49,671 nucleotides of DNA, taken from positions 17,746-67,416 of the forward strand of contig MFCA01000028.1 in the NCBI GenBank assembly GCA_001775095.1, written 5' to 3'. Source of the DNA: Candidatus Curtissbacteria bacterium RIFOXYA1_FULL_41_14. Its GTDB lineage: Bacteria > Patescibacteriota > Microgenomatia > Curtissbacterales > GWA2-41-24. Made by a program: the position numbers and the translations under genes. Under the pieces are notes generated by a model that saw nothing but the letters and a program-made list of their open reading frames with translations, did no database searches and had not been told where the DNA came from. Below are positions 9,027 through 30,791 of this stretch, piece by piece (the first letter of the stretch is position 1; each line of letters opens with the position of its first letter).

Positions 9027-10949
9027 ATGGCTGATATCAGAAAACTTGAAAAGTTGGCCCGCCTAGTTCGCTGGTATATTTTGAAAATGACGACACGGGC
9101 AGGCTCCGGTCATCTGACCTCGTCGCTATCGGCAACCGATGTGATGGTGGCTTTATTTTTCAATAAAATTAGATTCGACCTCAAAAACCCGCAAAATCCC
9201 GCCAGCGACAGAGTTATTTTTTCCAAGGGTCATGTTTCGCCTTTGGTTTACGCGCTATACGCTGCTGCAGGGGTTATAAGTGAAAAAGATCTTGAGGGCT
9301 ATCGAAAGTTTAAAAACCCTTTAGAGGGACATCCAAGGCCAAGTTTTAAATATATAGAGGTGGCAACGGGTTCTTTGGGTCAGGGTTTATCAGTCGGTCT
9401 AGGGATGGCCCTCGCCTTAAGGCAAGAATTTCCAAATTCCAAACTCCACATTCCAAAAGTCTATGTTCTTATGGGCGATTCGGAGACCAGCGAAGGATCT
9501 GTTTGGGAGGCTGTAGAGTTGGCACCTTATTATAAATTAGGTAATTTGGTAGGCATTATTGATGTTAATAGGCTTGGGCAGAGCGGCCAGACGATGCTTG
9601 GCTGGAATGTACAAGAATATAGACAGAGAGTTGAGGCTTTTGGGTGGCAGGCAAAAATTATTGACGGTCATGATTTAAAAGAGATAATTAAGGTTCTTAA
9701 TTCGCTGCCCGATGGCGGAGATAAACCACAGATGATTATTGCCAAAACCATTAAAGGTAAAGGCGTTTCGTTTCTCGAAAACAAAGAAGGCTGGCATGGT
9801 AAGGCCTTGTCAGATGAACAGTTTGAAGATGCCCTGGGGGAATTGGGCAGGATTGATAAAGAGGTCAGGGGGGAAATCGCAAAGCCAATTTCATTTCCAA
9901 CTTCAAAAGCTAGAAAGAAACCAACCGGTAATCAGTTACCAGTTACTAGTTACCAGCTCGGTGATTTGGTAGCTACTAGGAAGGCCTACGGCGAGGCGAT
10001 AACGGCTCTTGGTGCCACTGATCCTAGAATTGTTTGTCTTGATGCTGAGGTTAAAAATTCGACCTATGCTGAAATTTTTATGGAAAAATTCCCGGAGAGA
10101 TTTTTTGAGATGTTTATTGCCGAACAAAATATGGTCGGTGCAGCCTTGGGTTTTTCCAAACGAGGAATGATTCCGTTTGTTTCAACTTTTGCAGCTTTTT
10201 TGACAAGAGCTTTGGATCAAATAAGGATGGCGAGTTACAGTAATGCAGATGTTAAATTTGTCGGTAGTCATGCCGGTGTATCAATCGGTGAAGATGGGCC
10301 ATCACAAATGGGACTTGAAGATATAAGTATGTTCAGATCGATTTTTGGAAGTTACGTACTTTGCCCAGGCGACGCAGTATCTTGCAGGGAGCTTGTTGAG
10401 GTTGCAGCTAATACAAAAGGTCTTTTTTACATTCGGACTGCAAGACCAGCAACACCAGTCATTTATGCCAGAGGTGAAAAGTTTAAAATAGGCGGCAGTA
10501 AAGTTATCAGATCAAGTAAAGCCGACAAGCTGACAATTGTTGCCTGCGGTATAGCCTTAATCGAATCGATTAAGGCTGCTGATGAACTAGCAAAACTTGG
10601 CATCAAGGTGCGTCTGGTTGATGCTTATTCTGTCAAGCCTATTGATGAAGCGGGAATTAAAAAAGCCGCCAGAGAGACAAACAATTTACTTATTACAGTT
10701 GAAGATCATTATGCGCAGGGTGGTTTGGGTGATGCGGTTTTAAATGTTTTTGCAAATTCCTCACAGTCTCACTCCCGGAGTGCGCAAAGTTCGACCCATG
10801 CTCACTCCGGGAGTGTTGCTAGGGGTGTGAGGATCTATAAATTGGCAGTTTCTAAAATGCCGATGTCCGGCAAGAGTGAAGAGCTTTTGGATTATGAGCA
10901 GATTTCTCAAAAAGCCATTGTAAAAAAAGTATTGGAGATTTGTAAATAA
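9027..10949 (+). CDS. tkt: transketolase
   Basis: SGH.TSSLS, SKGH, TGSLGQG, GDSE..EG, IAEQNM, GEDGPSQ. Confidence 0.95.
   Translation: MADIRKLEKLARLVRWYILKMTTRAGSGHLTSSLSATDVMVALFFNKIRFDLKNPQNPASDRVIFSKGHVSPLVYALYAAAGVISEKDLEGYRKFKNPLEGHPRPSFKYIEVATGSLGQGLSVGLGMALALRQEFPNSKLHIPKVYVLMGDSETSEGSVWEAVELAPYYKLGNLVGIIDVNRLGQSGQTMLGWNVQEYRQRVEAFGWQAKIIDGHDLKEIIKVLNSLPDGGDKPQMIIAKTIKGKGVSFLENKEGWHGKALSDEQFEDALGELGRIDKEVRGEIAKPISFPTSKARKKPTGNQLPVTSYQLGDLVATRKAYGEAITALGATDPRIVCLDAEVKNSTYAEIFMEKFPERFFEMFIAEQNMVGAALGFSKRGMIPFVSTFAAFLTRALDQIRMASYSNADVKFVGSHAGVSIGEDGPSQMGLEDISMFRSIFGSYVLCPGDAVSCRELVEVAANTKGLFYIRTARPATPVIYARGEKFKIGGSKVIRSSKADKLTIVACGIALIESIKAADELAKLGIKVRLVDAYSVKPIDEAGIKKAARETNNLLITVEDHYAQGGLGDAVLNVFANSSQSHSRSAQSSTHAHSGSVARGVRIYKLAVSKMPMSGKSEELLDYEQISQKAIVKKVLEICK
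10770..10815 (+). repeat. palindromic element A (CACTCCCGGAGTG...CACTCCGGGAGTG), in frame in tkt
   Basis: 13-nt inverted arms, 20-nt spacer; encodes HSRS...HSGS. Confidence 0.9.
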
Positions 10950-11018
10950 ATTTTTCTCAAAGAAAATAATTGGTGATGAACTTACACCTCAAATAAAATT
11001 ATTGCCTGTTAATAAGTC

Positions 11019-11486
11019 TTAGGTCATTTGCGGTATACTACCTGCTCTTATCAAATTTTGCCTCTCGGTTTCAACACTGCTGCTTTCTATCTTCATGCCT
11101 TCTCTTGCAGACAGAGCAATTCCCTCGACTAAGCTTCTAATTTTAAAAACATCCTTTCTGTGAAGGTTGTTAACCATTATTTGGGGGCCACCTGTTAAAC
11201 TTTGGATCTCAATATGTCCAAAAAATGGCCCGCTTGAAGCATTAACGCAGGCGATATCACTAGCCATTATTGAAATGACCTCATTTGACCAAAATCCTTT
11301 TTTTCTGAACCAGACAATCCGACGTTCCTCAACGATCAATTCGTCAGGAAAAAGTGTCAGCGGAAAGATCTGGCGAGCCCAGGCAAGCATACGCGATTGT
11401 TCCTTATGGGTATGTTCGACAACAGTCTTGCCGGGTCCTGATACAAAATCAAGGCGCCAAATGTCGCTTAGTGCTGGGTATCTCAT
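11019..11486 (-). CDS. bacterial PH-like domain protein
   Basis: FPLTLFPDELIV...GPFFG; ATG 11486 preceded by GGAGGTGA. Confidence 0.7.
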   Translation of the reverse strand: MRYPALSDIWRLDFVSGPGKTVVEHTHKEQSRMLAWARQIFPLTLFPDELIVEERRIVWFRKKGFWSNEVISIMASDIACVNASSGPFFGHIEIQSLTGGPQIMVNNLHRKDVFKIRSLVEGIALSAREGMKIESSSVETERQNLIRAGSIPQMT

Positions 11487-12024
11487 GTTCACCTCCCCTC
11501 TGGCCAAAAGCCCTTTGGGTCACTGCTCCGGAGGCTTCCTCCGAGCCAGAGGCCAGTAATTTCGAAGTGAGGACCGCTCTGCTTCGAGGATCGGGTCTTA
11601 GGCCTTTCCAATCGTCAAGATAGGCCATTAATTTTTCCAGGGTAGGGAAGAAACTTGCGATTTCTTCTTCCGAAAGTCTGCTCCTGAGGTCTTTTTCTAA
11701 CTGATTAATTCTCTTTTTAATTAGCCTTACTTTTCTTTTTCCGTCGTCAGTTAGCACAATATTGTATTTTCGGCGATCGCCGTCAGGAGACTGCCTTTTG
11801 ACAAGATTGAGTTTTTCAAGCTTGTCGATAAGAGTTACTACAGAGGCGGGTTCAAGATGAAGTTTAGCTGCGAGTTCACGCTGATTGATGTTTTTTTGTG
11901 AATCCGTGATTAATATAGCTGAGGCCTCGGAATAGGAAAGTGAAAGCGGCGGTGACTTAAACCCGATAACTTTCTGGGTCTTTCTAGCGAATCCTATAAG
12001 GTGAAAGATAATAGTATGTTTCAT
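11449..12024 (-). CDS. MarR family regulator with repeat-derived C-terminal extension
   Basis: QRELAAKLHLEPASV..LIDKLEK..LV.R...DRR...LT..G; likely start 12024. Confidence 0.88.
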   Translation of the reverse strand: MKHTIIFHLIGFARKTQKVIGFKSPPLSLSYSEASAILITDSQKNINQRELAAKLHLEPASVVTLIDKLEKLNLVKRQSPDGDRRKYNIVLTDDGKRKVRLIKKRINQLEKDLRSRLSEEEIASFFPTLEKLMAYLDDWKGLRPDPRSRAVLTSKLLASGSEEASGAVTQRAFGQRGGEHEIPSTKRHLAP

Positions 12025-12043
12025 ACAAACGCTACCCCATTCT

Positions 12044-12072
12044 GTTAGAAATCTAACTGTTAGAATTCTAAC
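12044..12072. promoter_or_regulatory. tandem palindromic operator, probable MarR autoregulatory site
   Basis: GTTAGAAATCTAAC and GTTAGAATTCTAAC 20 nt upstream of marR ATG. Confidence 0.7.
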
Positions 12073-12208
12073 ATAGATCAGACAGAGCCTTAAAGTATAT
12101 CGCATGAAAATAACAATGTCAAGATGCCTTTTTATGTCTATTACGGGCAAGCGAAAACCATGGCTTGAAAGAATGTGAATGAAGTTTGAACCGCGAGGTG
12201 AAGGAAGA

Positions 12209-12241
12209 AAATACCAAGGCCTTTAGGCCTTGGGTAGTTTA
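12209..12241 (+). mobile_element. IS200/IS605-family end-like hairpin remnant
   Basis: CCAAGGCCTTTAGGCCTTGG followed by GTAGTTTA. Confidence 0.45.
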
Positions 12242-12574
12242 TTATTTTTCGATGAGGCGGTTGTAGACCGTTGCTATTAAATAACCGAAAATCCAAGTAC
12301 TTACACAGACAGCAATCAAGATTCCCAGGAAATTAACGAAGCTAAATTTTGGTACCTGAGAAGCGATGTCGACTCCAAAAAATTGGCTGTTTAATAGGAG
12401 CTTAAAGAATGGAGGGGCAATGATCTTGAGTAGATAGAGAACAATATAAATAAAAGCAGTGACAAGTGCAAAACTATTGGCCAGAGCTTGGGCTTTTAAC
12501 ATTTCTATCTTTGCTATTATAGCATTGGGGTTGGTGTCGAAAAGTATTGAGTATAAAAGGATCACTATTGACAT
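12242..12574 (-). CDS. small membrane protein
   Basis: Hydrophobic ORF ending GYLIATVYNRL; start may be internal ATG. Confidence 0.65.
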   Translation of the reverse strand: MSIVILLYSILFDTNPNAIIAKIEMLKAQALANSFALVTAFIYIVLYLLKIIAPPFFKLLLNSQFFGVDIASQVPKFSFVNFLGILIAVCVSTWIFGYLIATVYNRLIEK

Positions 12575-12660
12575 ATATTTTGAGGTTTGCCCATAATGAA
12601 TAAGATCCTAATTCTTTTAGGTCTAAAGCCCTTTCAGTTTGAGTACTGGCCAGTATTACT

Positions 12661-12697
12661 AAAGACCCCGTACATTGCTAACATGGGGTCTTTTTTT
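12661..12697 (+). terminator. terminator-like hairpin
   Basis: AAAGACCCCG/TGGGGTCTTT stem plus T run. Confidence 0.55.
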
Positions 12698-12873
12698 CTT
12701 TTCTAAGGGAACACCAAAGGTTTCCCCTTAGTATTCCTCTTCCTTTAAGTGGATAAAATTGGCCTGGCAAAGCCAGATCCAATTTTGATTTAGTATTAAG
12801 CTTACAATATACAGTCAGATGTCCAATTTCGAATTGGAAATTGGAAATTCACTGTAGTACAATTCAGGGTCAA

Positions 12874-13401
12874 ATGGCGGATAAGATTGTTCCTGAGGTA
12901 TTTAATAGTCCGACTTATGGTCAGTTGTCATGGCAGCAAGCACTTTTGAAAATGATCGCCTTTATGGGAGTTGATACTAAAGCTTCCTACGAGATGATTA
13001 TCGGAACTGATTCTGAGGCTGTCAATGGTATGGCCGATTTTGTTTCAGCTGTAATTGTTCACAAAAAGGGCAGAGGCGGAATCTATTTCTGGGCAAGGCA
13101 AAAAATAGATAATCTTCACTCAATGAGACAGAGGATTTGGCAGGAGGCGATTATTTCCTTGGCTGTGGCGGAGAAATTAGTTGGTGACTTAGTCCAGTTT
13201 GGTCTAGTTGATGGTCGCTCTAAGTCTGTGCTTGGGGATCCTGAGCGATTTAATCTGGAGATTCATGTTGATATCGGACCCAATGGGGAAACGCGTGCGA
13301 TGATTTCGGAAATTGTCGGAATGATTAGAGCCAATGGCTTCAAAGTTGCCACTAAACCAGCTTCCTGGGGCGCAAGCCACGTCGCAGATCGACATGTATA
13401 A
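12874..13401 (+). CDS. RNase H-like YkuK (DUF458) family protein
   Basis: IGTDSE, LEIHVDIG.NG.T, KP.SWGASHVADRH. Confidence 0.88.
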   Translation: MADKIVPEVFNSPTYGQLSWQQALLKMIAFMGVDTKASYEMIIGTDSEAVNGMADFVSAVIVHKKGRGGIYFWARQKIDNLHSMRQRIWQEAIISLAVAEKLVGDLVQFGLVDGRSKSVLGDPERFNLEIHVDIGPNGETRAMISEIVGMIRANGFKVATKPASWGASHVADRHV

Positions 13402-13509
13402 TGTCGATCGAAGACCATGAGTTATATCGAATGGTCGCTGACAGGCATGTGTAACATGACTGGCAGCGGCCCTGAGTACAATCGAAGGGTTGCGGATCGA
13501 CACGTCTAA
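13381..13509 (+). repeat. three recoded copies of the VADRHV-stop tail separated by inverted copies and 18-nt B hairpins
   Basis: Tails at 13381, 13434, 13489; hairpins at 13416-13433 and 13471-13488. Confidence 0.88.
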
Positions 13510-13557
13510 ACTAGGGTTTTTCTCTCAGAATAATATAAAATGAATTAGAGGATTATT

Positions 13558-14115
13558 ATGAATAGTCCCAAACATTTTGCGATTACGGATGACGTCCATC
13601 AACGGACAATTATTCTCGCCCGTTTAAGACTGCCATGGCTAATTGTGGGTCTGACAGGGGGCTTGGCTGCATCTTTTTTGGTGTCTAAGTTTGAAGATGT
13701 GCTGGCTGCAAACCTGTATCTTGTCTTTTTTATACCAGTAATTGTCTATTTAAGCGATGCGGTGGGAACTCAGACAGAAGTTATTTATGTAAGGAATTTG
13801 TCCACTTTTAAGGATAATTTCGCAAAATATTTAGCTAAAGAAATATTAGTAGGGGGCTTTTTGGGGGCTGTTTTGGGCGTATTGTTAGGTTTGGCAGCTT
13901 TTGCGTGGCTAAGGTCTGTTGAGACCGCCATAACAGTAGGTTTTGCAATGTTTTTAAATACTACCATTGCACCTGTGATTGCCGTAGTTATTCCAGAGAT
14001 TTTATCTAAAGAAAATATCGACCCGGCTTTAGGCGGAGGTCCATTTACTACAGTAATACAAGATTTTGTCAGCTTGTTAATTTATTTCCTTGTTGCCACC
14101 GCGATAATTTTGTAA
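13558..14115 (+). CDS. MgtE-type Mg2+ transporter, membrane domain only
   Basis: RLPWL, FIPVI, IDPALGGGPFTTVIQD. Confidence 0.88.
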   Translation: MNSPKHFAITDDVHQRTIILARLRLPWLIVGLTGGLAASFLVSKFEDVLAANLYLVFFIPVIVYLSDAVGTQTEVIYVRNLSTFKDNFAKYLAKEILVGGFLGAVLGVLLGLAAFAWLRSVETAITVGFAMFLNTTIAPVIAVVIPEILSKENIDPALGGGPFTTVIQDFVSLLIYFLVATAIIL

Positions 14116-14132
14116 CTGAAAAAAACACTAAA

Positions 14133-14879
14133 TTACGCTTGGTTTGGGTACTGTCTGCTGATATCTGTTGTGGGATCTCCAATTACTTTAAAAATAGAGC
14201 TAACCGAAACAACGGTGGAAAGATCTCTTATAGTGGCAATTGCTGATTGAAAATTGCTTTCCGGGCTGGAATCAAGTAAGAAGGCGATTTCAGCAAGACC
14301 TCCTTTGGCTTCTGGTTGTATCAATGAGCAGATGTTTAAATTGGAGTTTGCCAGTGTTTGGCATAAACTAGCCAATACTAATGGTTTATCCTTGACTCTC
14401 ACTCGGAAATAATGGCTTGTTTGAATATCATGATCAAGATCAGGAATTGGGGATACACCTTGTTTTTCGCTGTCTTTTAATGTTGATATGTAGACTAGAT
14501 TTTTACTTTCTGCCTGAGCCGACGGATGATTTTTTCTAATAAGAGTTGGTCCGATCCAAGCCACTAGCCCATTATTCCCAGTTCTGGCAATGGCAATGCG
14601 TTTTACAGCGTAACCAATAGGGTCAAATTGGCTGGCAAAGAAATGATCACGTTCTGTAATTCGTGCTTGATTAAGATCAATTTGATCTGGTTTTAGATTT
14701 ATTCCAAAAGCTGCATTTAGAATTGAGCAAAAGATTTTACGGGAATGACCCCTTCCTACTGGAATTTGGATTCCACCTGCAAGTTCAGGGGGAATAGTGT
14801 TTCTCAAAAGATCAACAATAGGGATAATTTTTTCGTTTGCGACGAGAGCGTCTGCTCTATAACGTTCGGATAAACCCAT
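14133..14879 (-). CDS. degenerate homoserine dehydrogenase C-terminal domain plus ACT domain
   Basis: ILNAAFG, GYAVKRIAIA, PTLIRKNHP, YFRVRVKDKPLVLA; no Rossmann domain. Confidence 0.65.
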   Translation of the reverse strand: MGLSERYRADALVANEKIIPIVDLLRNTIPPELAGGIQIPVGRGHSRKIFCSILNAAFGINLKPDQIDLNQARITERDHFFASQFDPIGYAVKRIAIARTGNNGLVAWIGPTLIRKNHPSAQAESKNLVYISTLKDSEKQGVSPIPDLDHDIQTSHYFRVRVKDKPLVLASLCQTLANSNLNICSLIQPEAKGGLAEIAFLLDSSPESNFQSAIATIRDLSTVVSVSSIFKVIGDPTTDISRQYPNQA

Positions 14880-14956
14880 AGTGAAGAGGTATTATAGGCA
14901 AAACAAAAGCCCACGTCAAACGCGATGGGCTTCTGTTTTTTTTACTTTTGAATTGG

Positions 14957-15559
14957 CTATTTTTTCTTTCTGCGTTTTCTCTTTGTTGTTGACTTTCGAC
15001 TTTGCGCTTTCGACTTTGACTCTGGCTTAACTGGTCCTTCTTCCTCTTCCTTCGTATACCACCAGGCGGCAATAATTACTAAAGCAACGACTACTAAGAT
15101 GACCAGGGCCGTATTTTTATCAAAACTGGATGCGGAAACCGGTGACGGCGAACCGACTGGTTCATTTTTAAAATTAACACTCACCACGACCGGGGGATTA
15201 AGTGAGCTGTGATCATTGTTGACAAGTTCGGCTCTTAAATTATGATCCCCATAGGAAACATCACTGAAAGTAAAATCATCCTTTATTAATTTAACAGCCG
15301 ACTCGCGCGTAGGACTGGCCTCATCAAGCCAGAGATGGATATGTCCTTGACCTACCCGCGGTAATTGATTTGTTTGATAATCGGTCAGCTGGAAATTTTC
15401 GATGGAAAAAAGAATGGGCACCCTGTTCTCATATAAAGTCTGGCCTTCAGTAGGCGTTATTACTTTTAATAAGGGGGTAGAGCTTTGAGCAAAAACCGAA
15501 GTGGCTAAAAGGACAGAAAATGCAAAAGCTCCAAAAAAATACTTCGCAATTTCACGCAT
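14957..15559 (-). CDS. exported protein with C-terminal TM anchor
   Basis: Signal peptide VFA-Q, GHIHLWLD, H.LRAELVNNDH, TM plus basic tail. Confidence 0.75.
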   Translation of the reverse strand: MREIAKYFFGAFAFSVLLATSVFAQSSTPLLKVITPTEGQTLYENRVPILFSIENFQLTDYQTNQLPRVGQGHIHLWLDEASPTRESAVKLIKDDFTFSDVSYGDHNLRAELVNNDHSSLNPPVVVSVNFKNEPVGSPSPVSASSFDKNTALVILVVVALVIIAAWWYTKEEEEGPVKPESKSKAQSRKSTTKRKRRKKK

Positions 15560-17939: not shown

Positions 17940-18482
17940 ATGTTTCGTCTTTCCCAAAAAGCAGATTACGGATTGATTTTACTGTCGTCACTGGCCAAGC
18001 TTCACTCCGTAGCCGGACTTCACTCCCGGAGTGAAGTCAAGGCGATATCTGGAGGACACTCCGGGAGTGTCACCGACAGTTCTGAGATTCACCCCCGGGG
18101 TGAAGTCAAGGCGATGTCAGGTTTACACCCCGGGGGTGTGAACCAAGCAGGCTATGTTTCCATTTCCTCGGTTGCCGCTAGACATAAACTCTCCCCCAAA
18201 TTTCTTTCTCAAATAGCCCGCGAACTCAAAGAGGCTGGGATCTTAAAATCCAAGGAGGGGGTCAGCGGAGGTTATAACTTAGCCAAGAAACCCAGGGAGA
18301 TTAAGATTATCGATGTTTTAAATGTTTTAGAAGGCAAGTTTTTCGAAGGTCGGTGTTTTGAGGAAGAGGGTAAATGTATTTGTGGAGCAGGTATTATATG
18401 GAAGGATATGAAAAATCAGGTTGAAGCGGTGCTAGGCGGAAAATCGGTTGCGGATCTGGTAAAATCTAAGCCTAATTCCTAA
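17940..18482 (+). CDS. Rrf2 family regulator (IscR-like) with in-frame repeat insertion
   Basis: LSQKADYG, FLSQI...LK.AG...S.EG..GGY.LAK, three Cys; upstream of iscS. Confidence 0.9.
   Translation: MFRLSQKADYGLILLSSLAKLHSVAGLHSRSEVKAISGGHSGSVTDSSEIHPRGEVKAMSGLHPGGVNQAGYVSISSVAARHKLSPKFLSQIARELKEAGILKSKEGVSGGYNLAKKPREIKIIDVLNVLEGKFFEGRCFEEEGKCICGAGIIWKDMKNQVEAVLGGKSVADLVKSKPNS
18021..18138 (+). repeat. two tandem palindromic A elements in frame in rrf2
   Basis: Arms at 18021, 18057, 18090, 18126; 69-nt period. Confidence 0.9.
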
Positions 18483-23207: not shown

Positions 23208-23222
23208 GAGGGGGAAAGTGTT

Positions 23223-24113: not shown

Positions 24114-24209
24114 TTTTCCTACCCTCTTGCACAACTATTTTTTTTCTGTTAATGTTATCAGTTTTCGTTGAAAAGGCTTCTGGCCCGGAGGGAGGTGATT
24201 ATATAAGAA

Positions 24210-24626
24210 ATGATTAATTTTAGAAAAGTGGTTTTACTTGGAACAGTAGCGTCAAGCGCGTTGGTTCTTTCAGCCTGCGGTTTGTATGGAGGTTCGACGA
24301 ATACGGGTACAGGACAGACCAATGGGACTACCCCGGAAACAGTTGAATCGCCAGTTGCCGGAAATGTTATCACTTATTCGGAAAGCGGTTTTTCTCCCAA
24401 GCAATTAACGGTGAAAGTAGGTGAAAGTGTTGAATTTGTGAATAATTCGTCTTCTAATGTTCAGGTTAATTCGGCACCTCATCCGACACACGAGCTTTAT
24501 CCTGAACTTAATATTGGGGTAATTGCCCCTGGGGAAACAAAATCAGTTACTTTTACAACGGCGGGGACCAAAACATACCATAACCATCTTAATCCTTCCC
24601 AGAATGGGCAGGTCACAGTTGAGTAA
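24210..24626 (+). CDS. cupredoxin-like lipoprotein
   Basis: Lipobox LSAC; FSP..LTVKVG, PHPTH, YHNH. Confidence 0.85.
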   Translation: MINFRKVVLLGTVASSALVLSACGLYGGSTNTGTGQTNGTTPETVESPVAGNVITYSESGFSPKQLTVKVGESVEFVNNSSSNVQVNSAPHPTHELYPELNIGVIAPGETKSVTFTTAGTKTYHNHLNPSQNGQVTVE

Positions 24627-24632
24627 GTTGAA

Positions 24633-25289
24633 CTAGACTAGTGGTTTTTGGCCGCTTGCTTTAAAATCAGCCAAAAATTTGGCAAGGCCAGTATCAGTTA
24701 AAGGATGATGGACCAGTTTTTCTAATATCTCATACGGACAGGTAGCAATATCGCATCCAGCCAAGGCTGCTTGTTTTACATGGAGTGGACTTCTAATAGA
24801 CGCAAAAAGAATTTGGGTTTCGAAGGCAAAATTGTCATAGATTTGGCGAATTTCTTCAATTACATCAATAGCTGTATGACCGATATCGTCAAGCCTGCCG
24901 GCAAAGGGGCTGACAATATAGGCTTTAAGTTTGCCGACTAATAGCGCTTGATTGGCACTGAAAACCAAAGTCATATTGGTTCTGATCTTTTCAGGTGTAA
25001 GAATTTTGAGTGCTTTGAGTCCATCTGGGGTCGTCGGAAGTTTAACGACAACATTTTTGTTAAGCTTAGCAAGTGCCCGGGCTTCTCTAAGCATTCCCTG
25101 GGTGTCTGTTGACAGAACTTCCAGACTAATATCGCCGTTGACGGTTACAAGAATTTGATTGACGGCTTGTTTGTAATCAATACCGGCTTTGGTTGCTAAA
25201 GATGGATTGGTAGTAACACCATCGATGATGCCTGCTTCCCACATCTTCTTAACTTCTTGGGGATTAGCGCTGTCGATAAAAAGTTTCAT
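24633..25289 (-). CDS. tal: transaldolase / fructose-6-phosphate aldolase (TalC type)
   Basis: FIDSA, GVTTNPS, VVKLP, SPFAGRLDD, ASIR. Confidence 0.93.
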   Translation of the reverse strand: MKLFIDSANPQEVKKMWEAGIIDGVTTNPSLATKAGIDYKQAVNQILVTVNGDISLEVLSTDTQGMLREARALAKLNKNVVVKLPTTPDGLKALKILTPEKIRTNMTLVFSANQALLVGKLKAYIVSPFAGRLDDIGHTAIDVIEEIRQIYDNFAFETQILFASIRSPLHVKQAALAGCDIATCPYEILEKLVHHPLTDTGLAKFLADFKASGQKPLV

Positions 25290-25350
25290 AGTATTATCAT
25301 TTTAACAGTAATTGACAAGGAACGGGTCCTGTCAGTCCTAAGTCCTGGTT

Positions 25351-25396
25351 CACTCCCGGAGTGTGCCAGGGTTTAACTTTGCGCACTCCGGGAGTG
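25351..25396 (+). repeat. palindromic element A, intergenic copy
   Basis: CACTCCCGGAGTG-N20-CACTCCGGGAGTG. Confidence 0.9.
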
Positions 25397-25482
25397 TGCA
25401 ATATCGAAAATTGGAAATTTGAAATTGAAAATTCCTAAGTTGTTGTTTGACAACAACTTAGGTTAGGTGGTCTAATCGTTTT

Positions 25483-26181
25483 GTGAGCTTTAAATTTTTC
25501 AAAGATTGGATCAGTAGTTGGCGGGCGTATTTGGCTGAGTTTATAGGCACTTTTGTTTTTGTTTTTATCTCTGCCGGTTCGGTTCTAGTTAATATTTTTT
25601 ATGGTGATGTAGGTATCATAGGTATCGCATTTGCGACCGGAATGATAATTTCAGCACTGATGTTTTCGGTGTCGAAATTATCAGGTGCTCATTTTAACCC
25701 GGCTGTTACCCTGGCGCTTTGGCTTGCACAGAAAATAAAAGGGAGTTTAGCATTTTTTTATATTTTGGCCCAAATTTCGGGGGGTTTTGCCGCAGCAGGA
25801 GTTCTCCTTTGGATCTTTGGACCGGACGCCCGGGAATTTTCATTAGGAGGTCCTGTTCTTGGAGTAGGGGTAAGTACGCAGGCTGCGGTGATTATTGAGG
25901 CATTATTAACGGCAATTTTAGTTTTTGTCTATTTTGCAATGACTGTTTCCCGAAACAGCTCGGTAAGTTTTAGCCCAATAGCTGTAGGTGCAATCTATAC
26001 AATCTCGATCTTTTTTGCCGGATCATTAACCGGAGGAGCAATTAATCCTGCAAAGGCGCTGGGGACACTGGTTATTTCAGAATCATATAGCAATCTTGTG
26101 ATTTGGGTCATTGGTCCGGCGACAGGAAGTATTTTCGGCATAATTTATGATTTTCTCTTTTTGAGAAAAGGAAAGAAGTAA
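25483..26181 (+). CDS. MIP family channel (aquaporin)
   Basis: AEFIGT, SGAHFNPAVT, GGAINPAK. Confidence 0.93.
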   Translation: MSFKFFKDWISSWRAYLAEFIGTFVFVFISAGSVLVNIFYGDVGIIGIAFATGMIISALMFSVSKLSGAHFNPAVTLALWLAQKIKGSLAFFYILAQISGGFAAAGVLLWIFGPDAREFSLGGPVLGVGVSTQAAVIIEALLTAILVFVYFAMTVSRNSSVSFSPIAVGAIYTISIFFAGSLTGGAINPAKALGTLVISESYSNLVIWVIGPATGSIFGIIYDFLFLRKGKK

Positions 26182-26284
26182 TTGTTATATTGCTAAATTG
26201 CTACATTGCTAAGTTGGTAGATTCTTCAACAATTTAACCATTTAACAATTCAACAATCCGATTGTTTCTGCTAAAATTACTTCA

Positions 26285-26797
26285 ATGCCTAATCAAACTA
26301 ATCCAGCGACCGGTCAAGATTCTCCTCAAGATAACGATCAAACCCAACAAGCGGGAGGAAGTTCTGTTGGCACTGCTCTCAAGGAGCAAGAACAGGACCA
26401 GCCGTCGGCTGTTAAAAAGGAAAAAGAGATTCTTTCCGAGATTATCAGAAGTAGTGAAGCAGCTGACGAACAGCTAAAAGCGGAAGTTCAAGGCGCAATT
26501 AGGGAAGCGAAATTAGCAATGCCGGAGCCAGAGTTGGCTCCCGATGTTGCCGACAGTGGTGTTAAAGCACCGCAATCTCAAGCAAACGAAGTTGTCACCC
26601 AAGGAACAACAATTAACTTACCAATTTCCGAAAAAGAATATAAAAAGGGACTGCATCAAAAGATTGCAGGAGTTGTTGTTAATAAGGTAGTTGTTGGAAC
26701 ATCAAGCCTTTTTGCTCTTGCTACTTGGGTTGGCAGACTTATTAAGATTGCACATAAGCATACGATCAAGGTCATATTTAAGAAGGGAGGGACCTAA
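26285..26797 (+). CDS. hypothetical protein
   Basis: 170 aa, disordered N-terminus, directly upstream of the ATPase. Confidence 0.75.
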   Translation: MPNQTNPATGQDSPQDNDQTQQAGGSSVGTALKEQEQDQPSAVKKEKEILSEIIRSSEAADEQLKAEVQGAIREAKLAMPEPELAPDVADSGVKAPQSQANEVVTQGTTINLPISEKEYKKGLHQKIAGVVVNKVVVGTSSLFALATWVGRLIKIAHKHTIKVIFKKGGT

Positions 26798-26800
26798 ATT

Positions 26801-29164
26801 ATGCCGATTGAGGAAGGATCACAAACAGCTGGCCAGATCGATGTACTTTCCGGTTTTCAACTAGTACTTCAGACGCTTGGATTTTTAGCCATAGCACTGG
26901 TGATTTTGGGTGTTTTGGCTTTTGTTGTTGGTTATATTTGGGTTATCTGGATGCGCAATAAAAATAGGGAAGAACGTTCACTTGAGTTTGTTTTACTTCA
27001 GGTTGCAGTACCCAGGGATAATGAAATAAAAATAGATGCCGCCGAGCAAATGTTTTCTTCTCTTTACTCTATTTATAAAAGTGGAACTCTTTCGTTTATT
27101 AAGCCTCAGGATCATCTCTCACTTGAGATTGTGGCTTTGCCTGAAGAAATTAAATTTTACATTTCCTGCCCCAAAAATTTACAGGATTTGGTTGAAAAAC
27201 AAATTCATGGTGCCTATCCTGGAGCTGATGTTAGAGAAGTTGAGGAATACAATATTTTTTCCGAGGAAGGCAAGCTTGCTTTTGCAGCTTTAAAACTCAA
27301 TAAAGCGAAATATTACCCGGTAAAAACTTATAAAGAATTAGGCACCGATCCTTTGAGTCAGATCACATCGGCAATGGCTAAAATGGAACCCGGAGAAGGT
27401 GCGGCTATTCAAATATTAGCGTCGCCTGCTGATGCCAGATGGCGGGCAGCCGGCAAGCGTTTTGTTACCAAGACGAAACAGGCAGAACTTTCGCCTAAGA
27501 CTGAAGAAAGGACCCCGCCTGATCCTAAAAAAATGGAGGCAGTTGAAAACAAGATTGCCAAAGTTGGTTTTAATGTGGTTGTTAGGATCGTTGTATCTGC
27601 TAAAACCGATGAAGATAGTAAGATTCATCTTGAAAACATTAAGTCGACCTTTGCTCAATTTGCCTCAGAATATAATGGATTTACCGGTGCCAATATTAGA
27701 TTTAAGAAACAATTTTTAGTTGACTTTGTCTATCGGTATTTACCACTTTTTGGCAACTTCGGTGTTTTAAATAGCGAGGAGCTGGCTACAATTTTTCACC
27801 TGCCTAATAAAAGCGTAGAGACTCCAGGGATTTTCTGGGTTAATGCCAAGCGGGCACCGGCTCCGGCTCAGATTCCTTCAACTGGACTTCATCTTGGCAA
27901 AAGCGTTTACCGGGGGACGACTAAGGAAGTTCATCTAAGTGAGGATGACCGCAGAAGACATGTCTACATAGTTGGAAAAACCGGAACCGGTAAGACCGAA
28001 CTTCTAAAGTATCTATTGATGCAGGATATCAAGGCAGGTCACGGTATTGCTTTTATTGATCCTCATGGTGATGCGGCCGAGGATATTCTAGCCCAAATTC
28101 CCCCTGACCGGGCGGAGGACGTTATTTACTTTAATCCCGCAGATACCGAGCGACCTCTGGGTATGAACATGTTAGAAGCCCAAACCGAGCAAGAAAAGCA
28201 TTTCGTAGCTACCTACATCGTCGGCTTAATGTACAAACTTTATGACCCTCACAAAACCGGAATTATCGGGCCACGATTTGAGCATGCAATCCGCAATGCA
28301 ATGCTGACGGTGATGTCAGAACCCGGCAATACTTTTGTCGAGGTGGTAAGGGTTCTTACCGATTCACGTTTTGTTCAGGAGCTTTTGCCAAAAGTTACTG
28401 ACCCGGTTGTTAGGCGCTACTGGACGGATCAAATTGCCCAAACAGCTGATTTTCATAAATCCGAGGTATTAGATTATATCGTTTCCAAATTCGGCCGGTT
28501 CGTAACTAACCGGATGATGAGAAATATAATTGGCCAGTCAAAAAGCGCTTTTAATCTTCGCGATATCATGGACAACAAAAAGATTTTGATCGTCAATCTT
28601 TCAAAAGGGAGAGTCGGCGAAGAAAATTCAAGCTTTTTAGGATTGGTTCTGGTTCCCAAAATTCTGGTTGCAGCAATGAGCCGGCAAGATGTTCCCGAGG
28701 AACAAAGGCCGGACTTTTTCCTGTATGTAGATGAGTTTCAAAACTTTGCGACAGAAACCTTTGCCGATATTTTGGCAGAGGCCAGAAAATTCAGACTGAA
28801 TTTGATTGTTGCTAATCAGTTCATTGGACAAATTGAAGAAGAAGTTAAAAATGCCGTTTTCGGCAACGTCGGAACACTAGTAAATTTCAGGGTGGGTGTG
28901 ACCGATGCTAATTACCTGCAGCACGAATTCACGCCGGTATTTAATGAGACCGATCTTATTAATATTGAGAGATTCCAGGCCTATGTCAAGACGATTGTTC
29001 GTAACGAACCGGTGCCGCCGTTTTCTTTGGATACGACCCGGGACTTGGCTAAAGTTGAGAGCGATCCTCGAATAGCCGAGATGATAAAGCAATTATCTAG
29101 GCTGAGATATGGCAGGGATGTAAACGTAGTCGACGCGGAGATTGTGCACCGGGCACGACTGTAA
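26801..29164 (+). CDS. membrane-anchored VirB4/TraD-like (T4SS coupling-type) ATPase
   Basis: N-terminal TM, DRRRHVYIVGKTGTGKT, IDPHGD, LYVDEFQNF, EARK, ANQ. Confidence 0.9.
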   Translation: MPIEEGSQTAGQIDVLSGFQLVLQTLGFLAIALVILGVLAFVVGYIWVIWMRNKNREERSLEFVLLQVAVPRDNEIKIDAAEQMFSSLYSIYKSGTLSFIKPQDHLSLEIVALPEEIKFYISCPKNLQDLVEKQIHGAYPGADVREVEEYNIFSEEGKLAFAALKLNKAKYYPVKTYKELGTDPLSQITSAMAKMEPGEGAAIQILASPADARWRAAGKRFVTKTKQAELSPKTEERTPPDPKKMEAVENKIAKVGFNVVVRIVVSAKTDEDSKIHLENIKSTFAQFASEYNGFTGANIRFKKQFLVDFVYRYLPLFGNFGVLNSEELATIFHLPNKSVETPGIFWVNAKRAPAPAQIPSTGLHLGKSVYRGTTKEVHLSEDDRRRHVYIVGKTGTGKTELLKYLLMQDIKAGHGIAFIDPHGDAAEDILAQIPPDRAEDVIYFNPADTERPLGMNMLEAQTEQEKHFVATYIVGLMYKLYDPHKTGIIGPRFEHAIRNAMLTVMSEPGNTFVEVVRVLTDSRFVQELLPKVTDPVVRRYWTDQIAQTADFHKSEVLDYIVSKFGRFVTNRMMRNIIGQSKSAFNLRDIMDNKKILIVNLSKGRVGEENSSFLGLVLVPKILVAAMSRQDVPEEQRPDFFLYVDEFQNFATETFADILAEARKFRLNLIVANQFIGQIEEEVKNAVFGNVGTLVNFRVGVTDANYLQHEFTPVFNETDLINIERFQAYVKTIVRNEPVPPFSLDTTRDLAKVESDPRIAEMIKQLSRLRYGRDVNVVDAEIVHRARL

Positions 29165-29197
29165 AATTCCCCAATTTGTGCTAAAATTTGAAAACTT

Positions 29198-29394
29198 GGA
29201 GCCGTAGCTCAACGGTAGAGCAGTACCCTTATATCTTGCTCATGGGCGCATAGCTCAATGGCAGAGCACCACTCTTATAAAGTGGCGGTTCTTGGTTCGA
29301 ATCCAAGTGCGCCCACAAGAACAAGATACATGAGCAAGATGTATTCTTGCGAATATAAGGTAAAGGTTTGATGGTTCGAATCCATCCGGCTCCA
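29198..29394 (+). tRNA. interrupted outer tRNA (Ile UAU if rejoined), ~124-nt insert in anticodon loop
   Basis: Acceptor GGAGCCG/CGGCTCC, D arm GCTC/GAGC, T arm GATGG-TTCGAAT-CCATC, TACC/GGTA stem, CTTATA..TATAA junctions. Confidence 0.7.
29244..29315 (+). tRNA. tRNA-Ile(UAU)
   Basis: Full cloverleaf GGGCGCA/TGCGCCC, CCACT-CT-TAT-AA-AGTGG, CTTGG-TTCGAAT-CCAAG; no encoded CCA. Confidence 0.93.
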
Positions 29395-29434
29395 CAAGTT
29401 CTCTGATGGAGCAATTCTGAATTAAAGTACTAAC

Positions 29435-29459
29435 GAAGGTTCGACTCCTTCCAGGCCCA
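29435..29459 (+). pseudogene. orphan tRNA 3' fragment
   Basis: GAAGG-TTCGACT-CCTTC-CAGGCCC-A. Confidence 0.7.
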
Positions 29460-29530
29460 CACTTACCCTTATATATCAGAGGAGCAACATTGAGACGAAG
29501 TCTCAAGTTGACCTGTTGATACAAAATGAA

Positions 29531-29560
29531 GTCCTTGGTCCGAATCCAAGTAGGCCCACC
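29531..29560 (+). pseudogene. orphan tRNA 3' fragment
   Basis: CTTGG-TCCGAAT-CCAAG-TAGGCCC-ACC. Confidence 0.7.
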
Positions 29561-29639
29561 TCACATTTCTCTCATATTTCAGAATCGTTACCTTTACATC
29601 CTTTTAGGAATTGTATAGACTTGTTTTATAGTTGGATTT

Positions 29640-29867
29640 ATGAGAATACTGGGCAATAGAGTCTTGTTTTTGACAGGAATTATTTGGGTAATCGGAGTTT
29701 TTATAATTGGTCTTGCCTTTGTGGCAAGTCATCCAGATTATTACAGGGAAGACGCCGTCCCCTCTGGAATACTGCTCTATAATATTTTTGCCTTTGCACT
29801 TTTCAGTATTCCGGGTTTTGTGCTTATTTACTTAGGGAAGTTGAAACCTAGAAGAGCTCCAAAATAA
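29640..29867 (+). CDS. small 2-TM protein
   Basis: 75 aa, two hydrophobic helices. Confidence 0.65.
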   Translation: MRILGNRVLFLTGIIWVIGVFIIGLAFVASHPDYYREDAVPSGILLYNIFAFALFSIPGFVLIYLGKLKPRRAPK

Positions 29868-29951
29868 ACCCATATCCGAAGTAAGATTAACCCATTTTTA
29901 TCCTCATTTTATTTCAGTTTCTTATCAAAATGCTAAAATGTATCTTTGGAT

Positions 29952-30791
29952 ATGAATTTTGGAATTGTTGTTGCTAAAGATAATCCTCCCGCAAAGAAAC
30001 TGGCTGGTGAGATTACAAAGTATGTTAAGTCAAAAGGTCATGAGGTACTGGATAAGGATAGACTAAAAGGATCGGATCTGTTTTTAACTCTTGGCGGTGA
30101 CGGAACACTTCTACACACGGCTTGCGAAAATATCCAGTTTCAAGTTCCTTTTGTCGGCATTAATCTCGGCAAGCTTGGGTTTTTAACGGCGACTGAAGCC
30201 AGTGATTGGAAAACTGCAATTGATAAACTAATTGACGGCAAGTATGTGGTTTCGGAAAGAATAACGCTGGATACGGAGATCGGTGCACACTCCCGGAGTG
30301 CGCTTGGTCGAAACTTTGCTCACTCCGGGAGTGAAGAAAAGGTCTTTCGTGCGTTAAATGAGGTTGTTGTTAAGGGATTGTATCGGGTGGTTGATTTACA
30401 GTTGAGTCTAAACGATCAGAAGTTTTTGAAAATTGTCGGAGATGGCGTAATTATTGCAACGCAGACCGGATCGACTGCATATTCTCTTTCGGCAGGAGGT
30501 CCAATTGTCGATCCGGATCTTGATTCTCTTCTAATAACACCAATAAATTCGACTGGTCTACCGATGCCCTCAGCAGTATTATCCAGTGAAAGTGTGGTTA
30601 ATATCGAGGTTTTAAGAGGAGATGATATTTCCTTAATTATTGACGGACAGGAGCATACGAAAATTAGTCAAAGTCAAAGTGTGAAGGTGAAAAGAGGGAA
30701 GCATAGGGTGAAGTTTGGTTACTTTGACGAGCACCACTTTTTAAAAGCCCTAAATGCGAAGTTTGGTCTTTCAGGAAGGTTTGATGGATAG
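29952..30791 (+). CDS. nadK: NAD kinase
   Basis: LGGDGTLL, GINLGKLGFL, ALNE, GDG...T.TGSTAYSLSAGGP. Confidence 0.94.
   Translation: MNFGIVVAKDNPPAKKLAGEITKYVKSKGHEVLDKDRLKGSDLFLTLGGDGTLLHTACENIQFQVPFVGINLGKLGFLTATEASDWKTAIDKLIDGKYVVSERITLDTEIGAHSRSALGRNFAHSGSEEKVFRALNEVVVKGLYRVVDLQLSLNDQKFLKIVGDGVIIATQTGSTAYSLSAGGPIVDPDLDSLLITPINSTGLPMPSAVLSSESVVNIEVLRGDDISLIIDGQEHTKISQSQSVKVKRGKHRVKFGYFDEHHFLKALNAKFGLSGRFDG
30288..30333 (+). repeat. palindromic element A in frame in nadK
   Basis: Encodes HSRSALGRNFAHSGS. Confidence 0.9.

Follow-up and report, generated by a model that had tools for sequence, protein, structure and literature searches.

How does one short palindromic sequence come to lie, in frame, inside three unrelated proteins of a groundwater bacterium? 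The window (the whole 49,671-nucleotide stretch analysed here) belongs to a genome of 1.15 Mb in 30 contigs, rated 99.66% complete (hereafter G000). Inspection of its letters had led to the prediction of five copies of a paired palindrome, one each in tkt, nadK and an intergenic region and two in rrf2.

Paired palindromes in the window and in the genome

All five copies were recovered at the positions first proposed, and the motif is far above chance. The commonest arm, CACTCCCGGAGTG, with up to two mismatches allowed, gave 18 strand-matches in the window, whereas shuffled sequences averaged 0.43 and never exceeded 3 (0 of 100 shuffles reached 18). The elements and their host genes are as follows.

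9021..10949, + strand: transketolase gene (tkt); Pfam Transket_pyr, Transketolase_N, Transketolase_C
10770..10815, strand not given: element with a 20-nt spacer (arms at 10770 and 10803, offset 33), in tkt residues 584-599
17940..18482, + strand: Rrf2-family regulator gene (rrf2); Pfam PF02082, residues 70-175 matching profile positions 21-131
18021..18069, strand not given: element with a 23-nt spacer (arms at 18021 and 18057, offset 36), in rrf2 residues 28-44
18090..18138, strand not given: element with a 23-nt spacer (arms at 18090 and 18126, offset 36), in rrf2 residues 51-67
25351..25396, strand not given: element with a 20-nt spacer (arms at 25351 and 25384, offset 33), intergenic
29946..30791, + strand: NAD kinase gene (nadK); Pfam NAD_kinase (residues 42-100) and NAD_kinase_C (146-257)
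30288..30333, strand not given: element with a 20-nt spacer (arms at 30288 and 30321, offset 33), in nadK residues 115-130

The arms had been described as near-palindromes set 33 or 36 nt apart. Each is a 13-nt palindrome of the form 6+1+6, the second arm being the exact reverse complement of the first, and the measured offsets are 33, 36, 36, 33 and 33. Both arms and the spacer together span 46-49 nt, and the conserved unit amounts to 48 or 51 nt: two inverted 13-nt arms, a 20- or 23-nt spacer and one flanking A/T per side. The two rrf2 copies stand in tandem, 69 nt apart, the second with the arm variant CACCCCCGGGGTG/CACCCCGGGGGTG. The intergenic copy lies between divergent ORFs at 24633-25289 (-) and 25483-26181 (+), and the spacer of the tkt copy is in reverse orientation relative to it.

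We then scanned the genome free of any motif, for any two 6+1+6 palindromes that are mutual reverse complements and lie 5-30 nt apart. This gave 62 matches, against 0, 0 and 0 in three shuffled genomes, and 59 elements once 3 between-copy artefacts were removed. Long ORFs contain 39 of these; about a third (20/59) fall outside, so that the predicted in-frame placement in proteins describes part of the family. The arm pairs vary as T..A, C..G, A..T and CT..AG, with C:G or T:A at the centre, and the partner arm always matches. The arms thus co-vary as a 13-bp stem with compensatory variants, a feature that had been overlooked. Folded as RNA, the elements reach -32 to -39 kcal/mol, a stability matched by 0 of 200 shuffles (z -3.9 to -7.5; tkt copy, -35.2 kcal/mol, z -5.8; intergenic copy, -39 kcal/mol, z -7.5). 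Comparison with Rfam returned no family that covers them.

Near-identical copies occur at unrelated loci, with similarity ending 1-5 nt beyond the arms and a weak consensus only in the flanks. The intergenic copy, for example, shares 19 of 20 spacer bases with an almost identical copy in a PMT-family gene at G000:C29:159583, and the similarity stops within 5 nt beyond the arms. Such sharply bounded near-identity points to recent copying. Contigs from four other public DNA runs span all five window copies, gap-free and unchanged; among them we saw neither an empty site of the same strain nor movement.

A Y1 transposase gene bracketed by the same palindrome

A profile search with PF01797 returned two matches in G000, one of which is framed by the arm palindrome:

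G000:C29:210878-211543, strand not given: Y1/HUH transposase gene, 221 aa, bracketed by the 13-nt palindrome

Its flanks form an inverted repeat of 38 nt with 82% complementarity, and within it lies CACCCCTGGGGTG, which differs from the commonest arm at 2-3 variable positions. The two copies of this palindrome lie 39 nt ahead of the start codon and 23 nt past the stop. Genome-wide, among 17 pairs of same-type palindromes 300-3000 nt apart, this was the only lone-arm-bounded interval filled by a single ORF; the second Y1 gene, on C13, is without bracketing arms. Y1 homologues in relatives carry their own perfect 13-nt palindromes at the same distances, at 9 of 31 loci and at 4 of 12 further loci, and in the relative G015 the bracketing palindrome, CACCTC[C/G]GAGGTG, is also the arm of 5 of its 6 elements. 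The original prediction had missed this link to an enzyme gene. Y1 genes occur in 26 of the 32 family genomes and elements in 8. The closest Y1 subfamily (at least 186 bits, a cut-off picked post hoc from the scores) is present in 7 of the 8 element-carrying genomes and in 1 of the 24 others, which as related genomes are not independent. In G021, G001 and G022 the Y1 genes are bracketed, yet our search pattern found no paired small elements. The best solved-structure match of the Y1 family profile is E. coli TnpA-REP (4er8, E = 0.005), a likeness to REPIN-RAYT systems, and the curated RAYT model NF047646 scored 44.7 and 49.4 bits, below its cut-off of 80.

The elements are best read as small non-autonomous repeats of the REP-doublet (REPIN/BIME) type. 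As a single strand the unit would form either one G+C-rich hairpin of 13 bp or two mini-hairpins, a fold that an IS200/RAYT-like Y1 (HUH) transposase acting on single strands would recognise. The candidate enzyme is the 221-aa protein above, which may mobilise the elements by copying the unit to new sites.

We regard as unlikely a generic MITE, whose arms would be the terminal inverted repeats (TIRs) of a DDE-type or unknown transposase, absent or unassembled, and for which the palindromes beside the Y1 gene would be two further insertions. Under random insertion one would not expect lone half-elements to flank the Y1 ORF at the distances that recur in other genera, where each homologue has a palindrome of its own. 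The arms do resemble TIRs, and in 25 of 27 copies with the 20-nt spacer the same A or T stands at -1 and +1, as a target duplication of 1 nt might leave it; the two arms, however, are strictly complementary and show compensatory changes, which argues for a hairpin substrate rather than for double-stranded TIR binding. Element number does not follow Y1 copy number, as G000 holds more elements than any other genome yet only two Y1 genes, while relatives carry up to nine Y1 matches. An enzyme could also have been lost among 30 contigs, but searches for three families, DDE_Tnp_1, rve and OrfB_IS605, found none of them in this 99.66%-complete genome.

In-frame inserts in predicted protein loops

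Pfam places the three window hosts in unrelated families (transketolase, Rrf2 and NAD kinase), as predicted, and finds families in 26 of the 29 other host ORFs. The hosts are mostly single-copy essentials, among them five aminoacyl-tRNA synthetases, SecA, GAPDH, a release factor, Obg, LepA, UvrB and FolD. In the four coding copies of the window the codons run CAC TCC CGG AGT..., giving HSRS...HSGS or HPRG...HPGG (HSRSAQSSTHAHSGS in tkt, HSRSEVKAISGGHSGS and HPRGEVKAMSGLHPGG in rrf2, HSRSALGRNFAHSGS in nadK). The proposal that the reading is always HxRx...HxGx holds for these four and fails genome-wide, where the 38 in-frame coding copies divide into 20 HxRx, 18 TPGV...TPGV (one base later) and none in the third frame. 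The use of two frames points to the DNA unit, rather than any one peptide, as what is constrained. In 68 of 90 strand readings the unused frame contains a stop, in most cases a TGA formed where A follows GTG. Elements whose arm offset is a multiple of three lie in long ORFs in 38 of 50 cases (12 outside), compared to 1 of 9 (8 outside) for other offsets (Fisher p = 4e-4).

Alignment with orthologues, the check that had been proposed, indicates that the elements are insertions, absent from most orthologues. The tkt insert is missing from 21 of 21 family orthologues, and the G000 protein, whose best PDB match (3ooy) aligns over residues 6-577, is 20 aa longer at the loop. The Rrf2 inserts are missing from 13 of 15 orthologues, and the PF02082 match resumes past them; G015 Rrf2 has an intact variant copy at the same loop (arms CACCTCCGAGGTG/CACCTCGGAGGTG). 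The nadK insert falls between the two Pfam matches, at a loop that is hypervariable across 23 orthologues, and the decayed copies found there in G016 and G013 stay in frame. In GAPDH, 38 residues stand in place of the 3 of a PDB homologue, and FolD is longer by 30. Measured against orthologues, the inserts (20, about 17-20 and 30 aa) are larger than the conserved unit with its 16-17 aa. Surface loops had been expected, and the two structure models place the inserts in low-confidence coil, predicted as disordered loops between conserved secondary-structure elements: residues 29-72 in Rrf2 (pLDDT <50 at 37-67) and 114-132, between strands, in NadK (pLDDT <50 at 117-129).

Since the genome is small and densely coding, most landing sites of a mobile unit would be genes. 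Genic copies would survive only with a whole-codon length, a mostly stop-free frame (one of two) and a tolerant surface loop, as translated peptides of 16-17 residues, rich in Gly, Ser, Pro, His and Thr, that would decay slowly into ordinary loop sequence. The frame and length statistics suggest that the inserts are translated and not removed, and they are probably selectively neutral.

Retention by the host, either as an mRNA hairpin (pausing, stability, RNase site) or as a functional His-containing peptide, seems to us quite improbable. The two frames give unrelated peptides, the host genes are functionally unrelated, and a third of the copies lie outside long ORFs; most orthologues are without the insert, copies in orthologues decay, and the inserts are disordered in the models. 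These points outweigh the very stable stem, the agreement in orientation between the 23-nt class and its host genes (12 of 12 copies) and the recurrence of copies at the same loops across genera.

Very unlikely is an immobile origin, in which template switching or hairpin-primed repair would create local palindromes at fragile loop-coding sites and gene conversion would make them uniform. It would fit the weak flank consensus and the loops of Rrf2, NadK and a NifU-like gene, which hold different palindromic inserts in different genera (G026 has a distinct perfect palindrome where G015 carries the element). The 20- or 23-nt spacers, however, are homologous across dozens of unrelated loci, across genera and in other families of the class, which together with the sharply bounded near-identity argues for one unit copied rather than for independent local origins. 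Intron-like excision or ribosomal bypass, by which the element would never appear in protein, is hardly credible: a compact, very stable hairpin in coding sequence is the structure type of known bypass elements, as in some mitochondria, and no Rfam family covers ours, but whole-codon length and open frames would then no longer be needed, whereas frame-breaking offsets are nearly absent from ORFs, no copy uses the stop-bearing frame and decayed copies are still in frame.

Relatives among known systems

The IS200/IS605 elements and their miniature derivatives, such as the palindrome-associated transposable elements of haloarchaea, share with this family a Y1 transposase gene between subterminal hairpins, the lack of a long target duplication and, presumably, a single-stranded hairpin-recognising chemistry. 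They differ in that our hairpins are perfect 6+1+6 palindromes, the bracketed G000 gene is single-copy, an OrfB_IS605 search found no TnpB, and the small elements consist of a facing pair of hairpins instead of a left end and a right end. Fungal mitochondria contain mobile G+C-rich palindromic clusters and translational-bypass elements, in which, as here, short G+C-rich hairpins invade the coding sequence of an A+T-richer genome; the bypass elements need not keep the frame, which is kept here.

Rickettsia palindromic elements (RPEs) are about 100-150 bp long and, to our knowledge, no transposase has been tied to them; compared by description, our unit differs in its 48 or 51 nt, its two reading frames and a candidate enzyme gene with the same palindrome. 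The two families agree, by an RPE review (PMC10969869), in that a small genome carries a palindromic repeat in frame within many unrelated housekeeping genes, with inserts that the protein fold can accommodate and with some further copies between genes. The RPE analogy of the original prediction is apt as a description of the outcome, because the repeats are dispersed, palindromic and in frame, absent from orthologues and in disordered loops; the observation itself was confirmed, and its interpretation in part.

The REPINs or REP doublets (BIMEs) of Proteobacteria and their RAYT (TnpA-REP) enzymes (Bertels & Rainey 2011, PMC3116915; Nunvar et al. 2010, PMC2817692; Ton-Hoang et al. 2012, PMC3333891) are alike in their short palindromic units, arranged as inverted doublets with a spacer and folding into a hairpin, in compensatory changes that keep the palindrome, in having that palindrome on both sides of a Y1/HUH transposase gene, and in a palindrome that varies between genomes together with the flanked gene. 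REPs are extragenic by definition (in P. fluorescens SBW25, 14 of 1,067 16-mers overlapped genes; PMC3116915), whereas here 39 of 59 copies are genic, in frame apart from one; REPs usually have a GT(A/G)G head, whereas in 29 aligned copies here GTG is never followed by G; and our units are shorter than REPINs (13-nt palindrome, 46-49-nt doublet). The Y1 protein, at about 220 aa, scores under the curated RAYT cut-off, relatives with up to nine Y1 matches are more like active insertion sequences than like single-copy RAYTs, and the host is a CPR bacterium.

We put at roughly 60% the probability that this is a non-autonomous element of a REP/REPIN-RAYT-like type, recognised by its hairpin and, in the manner of Rickettsia RPEs, surviving as in-frame loops that are translated. 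As the Y1 gene is bracketed by the element's own palindrome, the closest mechanistic relatives would be REP/REPIN-RAYT or IS200-derived systems, and the family may be moved from repeats with no known enzyme toward these.

A family of paired palindromes in the window and the genome

The repeat family is real and strongly non-random. A search of the window for the arm CACTCCCGGAGTG, with up to two mismatches, gave 18 strand-matches, compared to a mean of 0.43 in shuffled sequence, and none of 100 shuffles reached 18. The matches resolve into five pairs of inverted arms:

10770/10803, within tkt (transketolase by Pfam)
18021/18057, within rrf2 (Rrf2 regulator by Pfam)
18090/18126, within rrf2, the variant second copy
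25351/25384, between divergent ORFs
30288/30321, within nadK (NAD kinase by Pfam)

The original prediction had named these sites and had described near-palindromic arms offset by 33 or 36 nt. All of this was recovered, with the same two offsets. Every arm forms a 6+1+6 palindrome, and reverse-complementing the first arm of a pair gives the second exactly. An assembly artefact is ruled out, since Logan contigs of four further public DNA runs, which are independent assemblies, span all five copies without gaps. Rfam 15 at the gathering score placed no family over the elements, its only matches in the window being three tRNAs. A CRISPR reading was rejected because the arms are only two, and an intrinsic terminator because the T-run is missing after the stem.

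The window is positions 17746-67416 of contig C28 of a genome (G000) of 1,148,276 bases in 30 contigs, with 40% G+C and a rated completeness of 99.66%. A pattern close to the original motif found 49 pairs in this genome, and the wider CACNNCNGNNGTG pattern found 52 after removal of three pairs that merely bridged two neighbouring copies. A motif-free scan, which accepted any two G+C-rich 6+1+6 palindromes that lay 5-30 nt apart and were mutual reverse complements at 11 or more of 13 positions, returned 62 pairs, compared to 0, 0 and 0 in three shuffled genomes; the same clean-up left 59. Before clean-up, the spacers measured 20 nt (30 pairs), 23 nt (15), 21 nt (7) and 8 nt (4), with a few other lengths. 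The 8-nt spacers, GGCTCTGA/TCAGAGCC, define a short third class of 34 nt in total, with arms CACCTCCGAGGTG or CACCCCTGGGGTG and two of its four copies in long ORFs:

C7:11847-11880, short-class copy
C16:4271-4304, short-class copy
C6:1272-1305, short-class copy
C25:16222-16255, short-class copy

Within each of the two main classes the spacers are homologous, approximating xGCCAGG....CTTTGCx for 20 nt and AAGTC..G.CG....C..GAGAA for 23 nt. The arms vary at their outer positions (T..A, C..G, A..T, CT..AG) and at the centre (C:G or T:A), and the partner arm always matches. This variation in step amounts to covariation for a 13-bp stem. RNA folds of the five window copies have energies of -32 to -39 kcal/mol (z of -3.9 to -7.5). 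Near-identical copies occur at unrelated loci (the intergenic copy at 25351 and one in a PMT-family gene on contig C29; the copies in fmt and folD), which would imply past copying, and their likeness stops 1-5 nt beyond the arms. In 29 aligned class-20 copies the base that precedes the first arm (CAC) is always A or T, and the base that follows GTG is A in 13, T in 12, C in 4 and G in none. These two flanking bases are the same letter in 25/27 class-20 copies, as a single identical A/T on each side, and no longer duplication was seen. The sharp ends of similarity and the matching flanks delimit a conserved unit of 48 or 51 nt (16 or 17 codons). Copy-specific covariation of flank and spacer was considered and rejected: the observed pairing (4.37 and 4.11 of 8 pairs) was nearly equaled by flank-swapped controls (4.19 and 3.75), which leaves only a weak flank consensus over random flanks (3.04 and 3.08).

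Several individual copies are of note. Directly 5' of the first rrf2 element, positions 18000-18020 of the window hold CACTCCGTAGCCGGACTT (read HSVAGL), which resembles a partial third arm. The 20 nt that separate the tandem rrf2 copies are similar to this stretch, a resemblance by which the two copies may represent a 69-nt tandem duplication. The spacer of the intergenic copy carries an extra A at 25378 in one contig of each of the four DNA runs, at about one-fifth to one-third of the summed depth; this is either a variant with a 21-nt spacer or cross-mapping from another copy. The copy at C25:130278 combines the usual 20-nt spacer family with quite different arms, CGAACCCGGTTCG/CGAATCGGGTTCG, whose palindrome is also found upstream of a Y1 transposase gene in the relative G016.

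Placement in reading frames and protein loops

By the rule of lying within an ORF of at least 150 aa and more than 10 residues from either end, 39 of the 59 copies are genic. Random 48-nt windows satisfy this rule in 77% of cases, and thus genes are not preferred. The 21/22-nt-spacer class (0/8) is the sole class wholly outside such ORFs. Beyond the window hosts, 26/29 host ORFs match Pfam families, including five aminoacyl-tRNA synthetases, SecA, GAPDH, a class-I release factor, Obg, LepA, UvrB, two UvrD-like helicases, FolD, Fmt, ThyX, PurL, MiaA and a ClpB-like ATPase.

The copies show three filters, of length, frame and stop codons. Offsets that are a multiple of three occur in 38 genic and 12 other copies, whereas the remaining offsets occur in 1 and 8, respectively (Fisher p = 4e-4). 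The four coding copies of the window share the frame CAC TCC CGG AGT, and the original prediction had the peptide always as HxRx...HxGx. This holds for the window as a sampling effect: across the genome, HxRx...HxGx is used by 20 coding copies, TPGV...TPGV, one base later, by 18, and the third frame by none. The claim of in-frame insertion in unrelated proteins is borne out. A histidine motif at the protein level was rejected, as two frames are in use. The third frame is closed in 68/90 strand readings, mostly by the TGA that the arm end GTG forms with a following A; in the other 22 readings it is open and still never used. With respect to the host gene, the 23-nt class has the same orientation in 12/12 copies, and the 20-nt class is divided 10 and 10.

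Alignment to orthologues, which the original prediction had proposed for delimiting the inserts, shows them to be insertions. All 21 family orthologues of tkt read NVFA-xxxx-VKVYKLAV at the site where G000 has 20 further residues, and about 47 extra residues of the G000 Rrf2 are missing from 13/15 orthologues. Of the other two, one is the Rrf2 of the relative G015, whose corresponding loop holds a single intact element; its arms, CACCTCCGAGGTG/CACCTCGGAGGTG, are four coordinated changes away from those of G000. The other is that of G014, with a long insert in which no arms can be recognised. The NadK site is a hypervariable hairpin loop, in which the relatives G016 and G013 hold decayed copies that are in frame still. 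Compared to solved homologues, GAPDH has 38 residues in place of 3, from two adjacent copies, and FolD has 30 residues extra. The net insert sizes often exceed the unit of 16-17 aa. Surface loops had been expected on predicted structures, and the two AlphaFold models, built from orthologue alignments, place the inserts in predicted coil. In Rrf2 (mean pLDDT 74.5) the coil spans residues 29-72 between helices 6-28 and 75-81, with pLDDT below 50 at 37-67; in NadK (mean pLDDT 84.6) it spans 114-132 between strands 108-113 and 133-136, with pLDDT below 50 at 117-129.

Empty sites were sought in close relatives by scanning metagenomes with tkt, and nothing above 68% identity was found. Among 80 metagenome tkt loci none has paired arms; the loop length is readable in 20, of which 19 have 11-13 residues and one has 18, compared to 32 in G000. 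G015 has specific inserts of about 65 and 69 nt relative to G026 and G030 at two loci, each enclosing a 49-nt element, in a comparison at 72-75% identity, a divergence at which the insert ends and any duplication are not fixable. One of the G015 elements (C18:18043-18091) lies in a NifU/IscU-like gene. At the orthologous locus, G026 (C12) has another insert with a perfect palindrome, TTCGCTTCGCGAAGCGAA, and G030 has neither. The tkt frames of G013 and G023 (724 aa), G003 (682 aa) and G016 (679 aa) are 40-100 aa above the usual length of about 625-635 and match the query in separate pieces, which suggests other in-frame insertions at other positions.

On the evidence of these sequences, we consider it very likely, at a probability of roughly 0.85, that the elements are selfish DNA hairpins that persist as loops translated in frame with their hosts.

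Distribution and a candidate Y1 transposase

The CACNNCNGNNGTG pattern detects elements in 8/32 genomes of the family, 44 in G000 and 1-6 in each of the others, with 0 in all of them for the reversed-pattern control. In other families of the class, 5/237 sampled genomes have 1-6 matches, and in two of these five (G034 and G185) the arms are direct, not inverted; G227, G203 and G069 are further Microgenomatia genomes with matches. The exact element occurs in five stretches of public records, four of them from Candidatus Curtissbacteria. The fifth (JAQUMS010000116.1, 4715-4761) is a single exact copy on a contig of 5.3 kb from a MAG that is binned as Omnitrophota, which mis-binning of a Curtissbacteria contig or a transfer could explain. 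A search of public sequencing runs listed 20 of DNA with the sequence and none of RNA. The contigs of the four DNA runs, which drop rare variants, show no copy as polymorphic, empty or filled, within the strain. One contig joins 17978 to 18086 across 20 different letters (side 27) and represents a related organism, too divergent to define element boundaries, whose rrf2 has the second element only.

A candidate enzyme is provided by the Y1 (HUH) transposases. Two genes of G000 match PF01797 (Y1_Tnp), with scores of 43.8 and 34.7 bits where the cut-off is 23. One of them, at C29:210878-211543, specifies a protein of 221 aa in which the HUH motif reads PNHYHLL and the tyrosine motif RYIHLNP; both are conserved in an alignment of 11 sequences. 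The gene is enclosed by a 38-nt inverted repeat, 82% complementary, whose palindrome CACCCCTGGGGTG stands 39 nt upstream of the start codon and, on the other side, 23 nt downstream of the stop codon. CACCCCTGGGGTG is also found among the arm variants of the small elements, and the intergenic 21-nt class has it as its main arm. Both plus-strand copies at this gene have T as the central base, so that the 13-mers, taken by themselves, are in direct orientation; the palindromes that flank a Y1 gene in G015, G016 and G021 are exact reverse complements of each other. Among the 17 pairs in G000 in which two perfect palindromes of one type lie 300-3000 nt apart, the C29 Y1 interval alone has lone arms and one filling ORF.

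At 9/31 loci in relatives, a Y1 homologue stands between perfect 13-nt palindromes of its own, at the distances seen in G000, and so does one at 4 of 12 further loci, these 12 being the ones among 16 fetched in which the motif search found the ORF. The bracketing palindrome of G015 is the arm of 5/6 of its elements, and one Y1 gene of G013 has a doublet on each side. The closest Y1 subfamily (at least 186 bits, a threshold picked after seeing the score gap) is present in 7/8 element-carrying genomes compared to 1/24 others, the genomes being related and not independent. With the family profile, the best solved relative is E. coli TnpA-REP (4er8, E = 0.005), followed by ISDra2 TnpA; phmmer of the protein against the PDB gave no relevant match. 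More than 2,100 metagenome relatives are named at most "transposase", and some from Daviesbacteria, at 62% identity, are closer than any within the Curtissbacteria family.

Several results limit, or count against, this link of enzyme and element. Y1 genes are present in 26/32 family genomes, whereas elements are present in only 8/32, and G000 has the most elements of the family with just two Y1 genes. The commonest element arm differs in variable positions from the arm at the C29 gene. A search for paired small elements on the Y1-bracketing palindromes of G021, G001, G022, G008 and G025 gave only chance-level, non-palindromic matches, with a pattern that is unable to capture the palindromes of the last two. 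Taking the selfish-hairpin reading as a whole, the elements are probably mobilised by the bracketed candidate Y1 transposase.

Two further observations concern the surroundings. Two intergenic 21-nt-spacer copies with CACCCCTGGGGTG arms, C29:208273-208319 and C29:214514-214560, lie one on each side of the bracketed Y1 gene and no more than about 3 kb from it. At C1:16000-16760, a cassette of about 714 nt stands between identical direct repeats of about 46 nt, each with the palindrome GAGTCTCAGACTC, and contains two small ORFs that we take to resemble a toxin-antitoxin pair.

Relation to known palindromic elements

A MITE derived from a DDE element would share the inverted arms, and the element flanks show only the single identical A/T in 25/27 class-20 copies. 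No parent IS that encodes a DDE transposase with the same ends was found in G000, where profiles for DDE_Tnp_1, rve and OrfB_IS605 (PF01609, PF00665 and PF01385) had no match.

REP/REPIN-RAYT systems are regarded as strictly extragenic, whereas 39/59 G000 copies are genic. The GT(A/G)G head of REPs is absent beside the G000 palindrome (G after GTG in 0/29), and the two G000 Y1 proteins score 44.7 and 49.4 bits with the curated RAYT model NF047646, below its cut-off of 80. The likeness to REPIN/BIME-RAYT systems lies in the highly repeated palindrome, the inverted doublets with a spacer (59 compared to 0 in shuffled genomes), the hairpin, and a Y1 gene flanked by the genome's repeated palindrome in inverted orientation. 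In the parts of PMC3116915 and PMC2817692 that describe REPs, inverted doublets form hairpins, inverted REPs flank rayt genes, and complementary mutations keep the palindrome.

Rickettsia has been known for more than 20 years to carry palindromic insertions in frame within protein genes, and to our knowledge an enzyme or mechanism for them has never been found. These Rickettsia palindromic elements (RPEs) are about 100-150 bp in size, three times longer than the G000 unit of 48 or 51 nt, and belong to another phylum, the two being set apart by size and host and not by sequence comparison. The RPE analogy of the original prediction stands for the outcome: a palindromic repeat lies in frame in many unrelated protein genes of G000, at positions that two predicted models suggest the fold tolerates. 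Integration of RPEs in frame in many metabolic genes is described in the relevant part of PMC10969869.

The element family joins these two known kinds, with REPIN architecture and an RPE-like outcome. Being genic, short, from another phylum, without the GT(A/G)G head and below the RAYT cut-off, it belongs fully to neither. We found no literature on such elements in Curtissbacteria, Microgenomates or Patescibacteria, and supplementary tables on REP/RAYT may list more phyla.

In practical terms, the inserts break Pfam and homology alignments of Curtissbacteria proteins and can mislead annotation. G000 unites REPIN architecture with a cognate-looking Y1 gene, yet two-thirds of its copies are in essential genes, filtered by frame and length. 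This raises the questions of how a genome that has hardly any room between its genes comes to be colonised by selfish hairpin DNA, what share of loop expansion in the proteins of ultra-small bacteria is owed to such elements, and whether HUH transposases drive it. A tentative reading, to which we give somewhat less than even odds, is that a CPR replicator of the REPIN-RAYT type left its intergenic niche for the reading frames of essential genes. The unit of 16 or 17 codons, the two stop-free frames on either strand and the loop-friendly peptides would then be the element's adaptations to genes, and core proteins would keep gaining new surface loops from it. If this is true, a candidate enzyme and mechanism would also be at hand, for the first time, for palindromic insertions in frame of the RPE kind.
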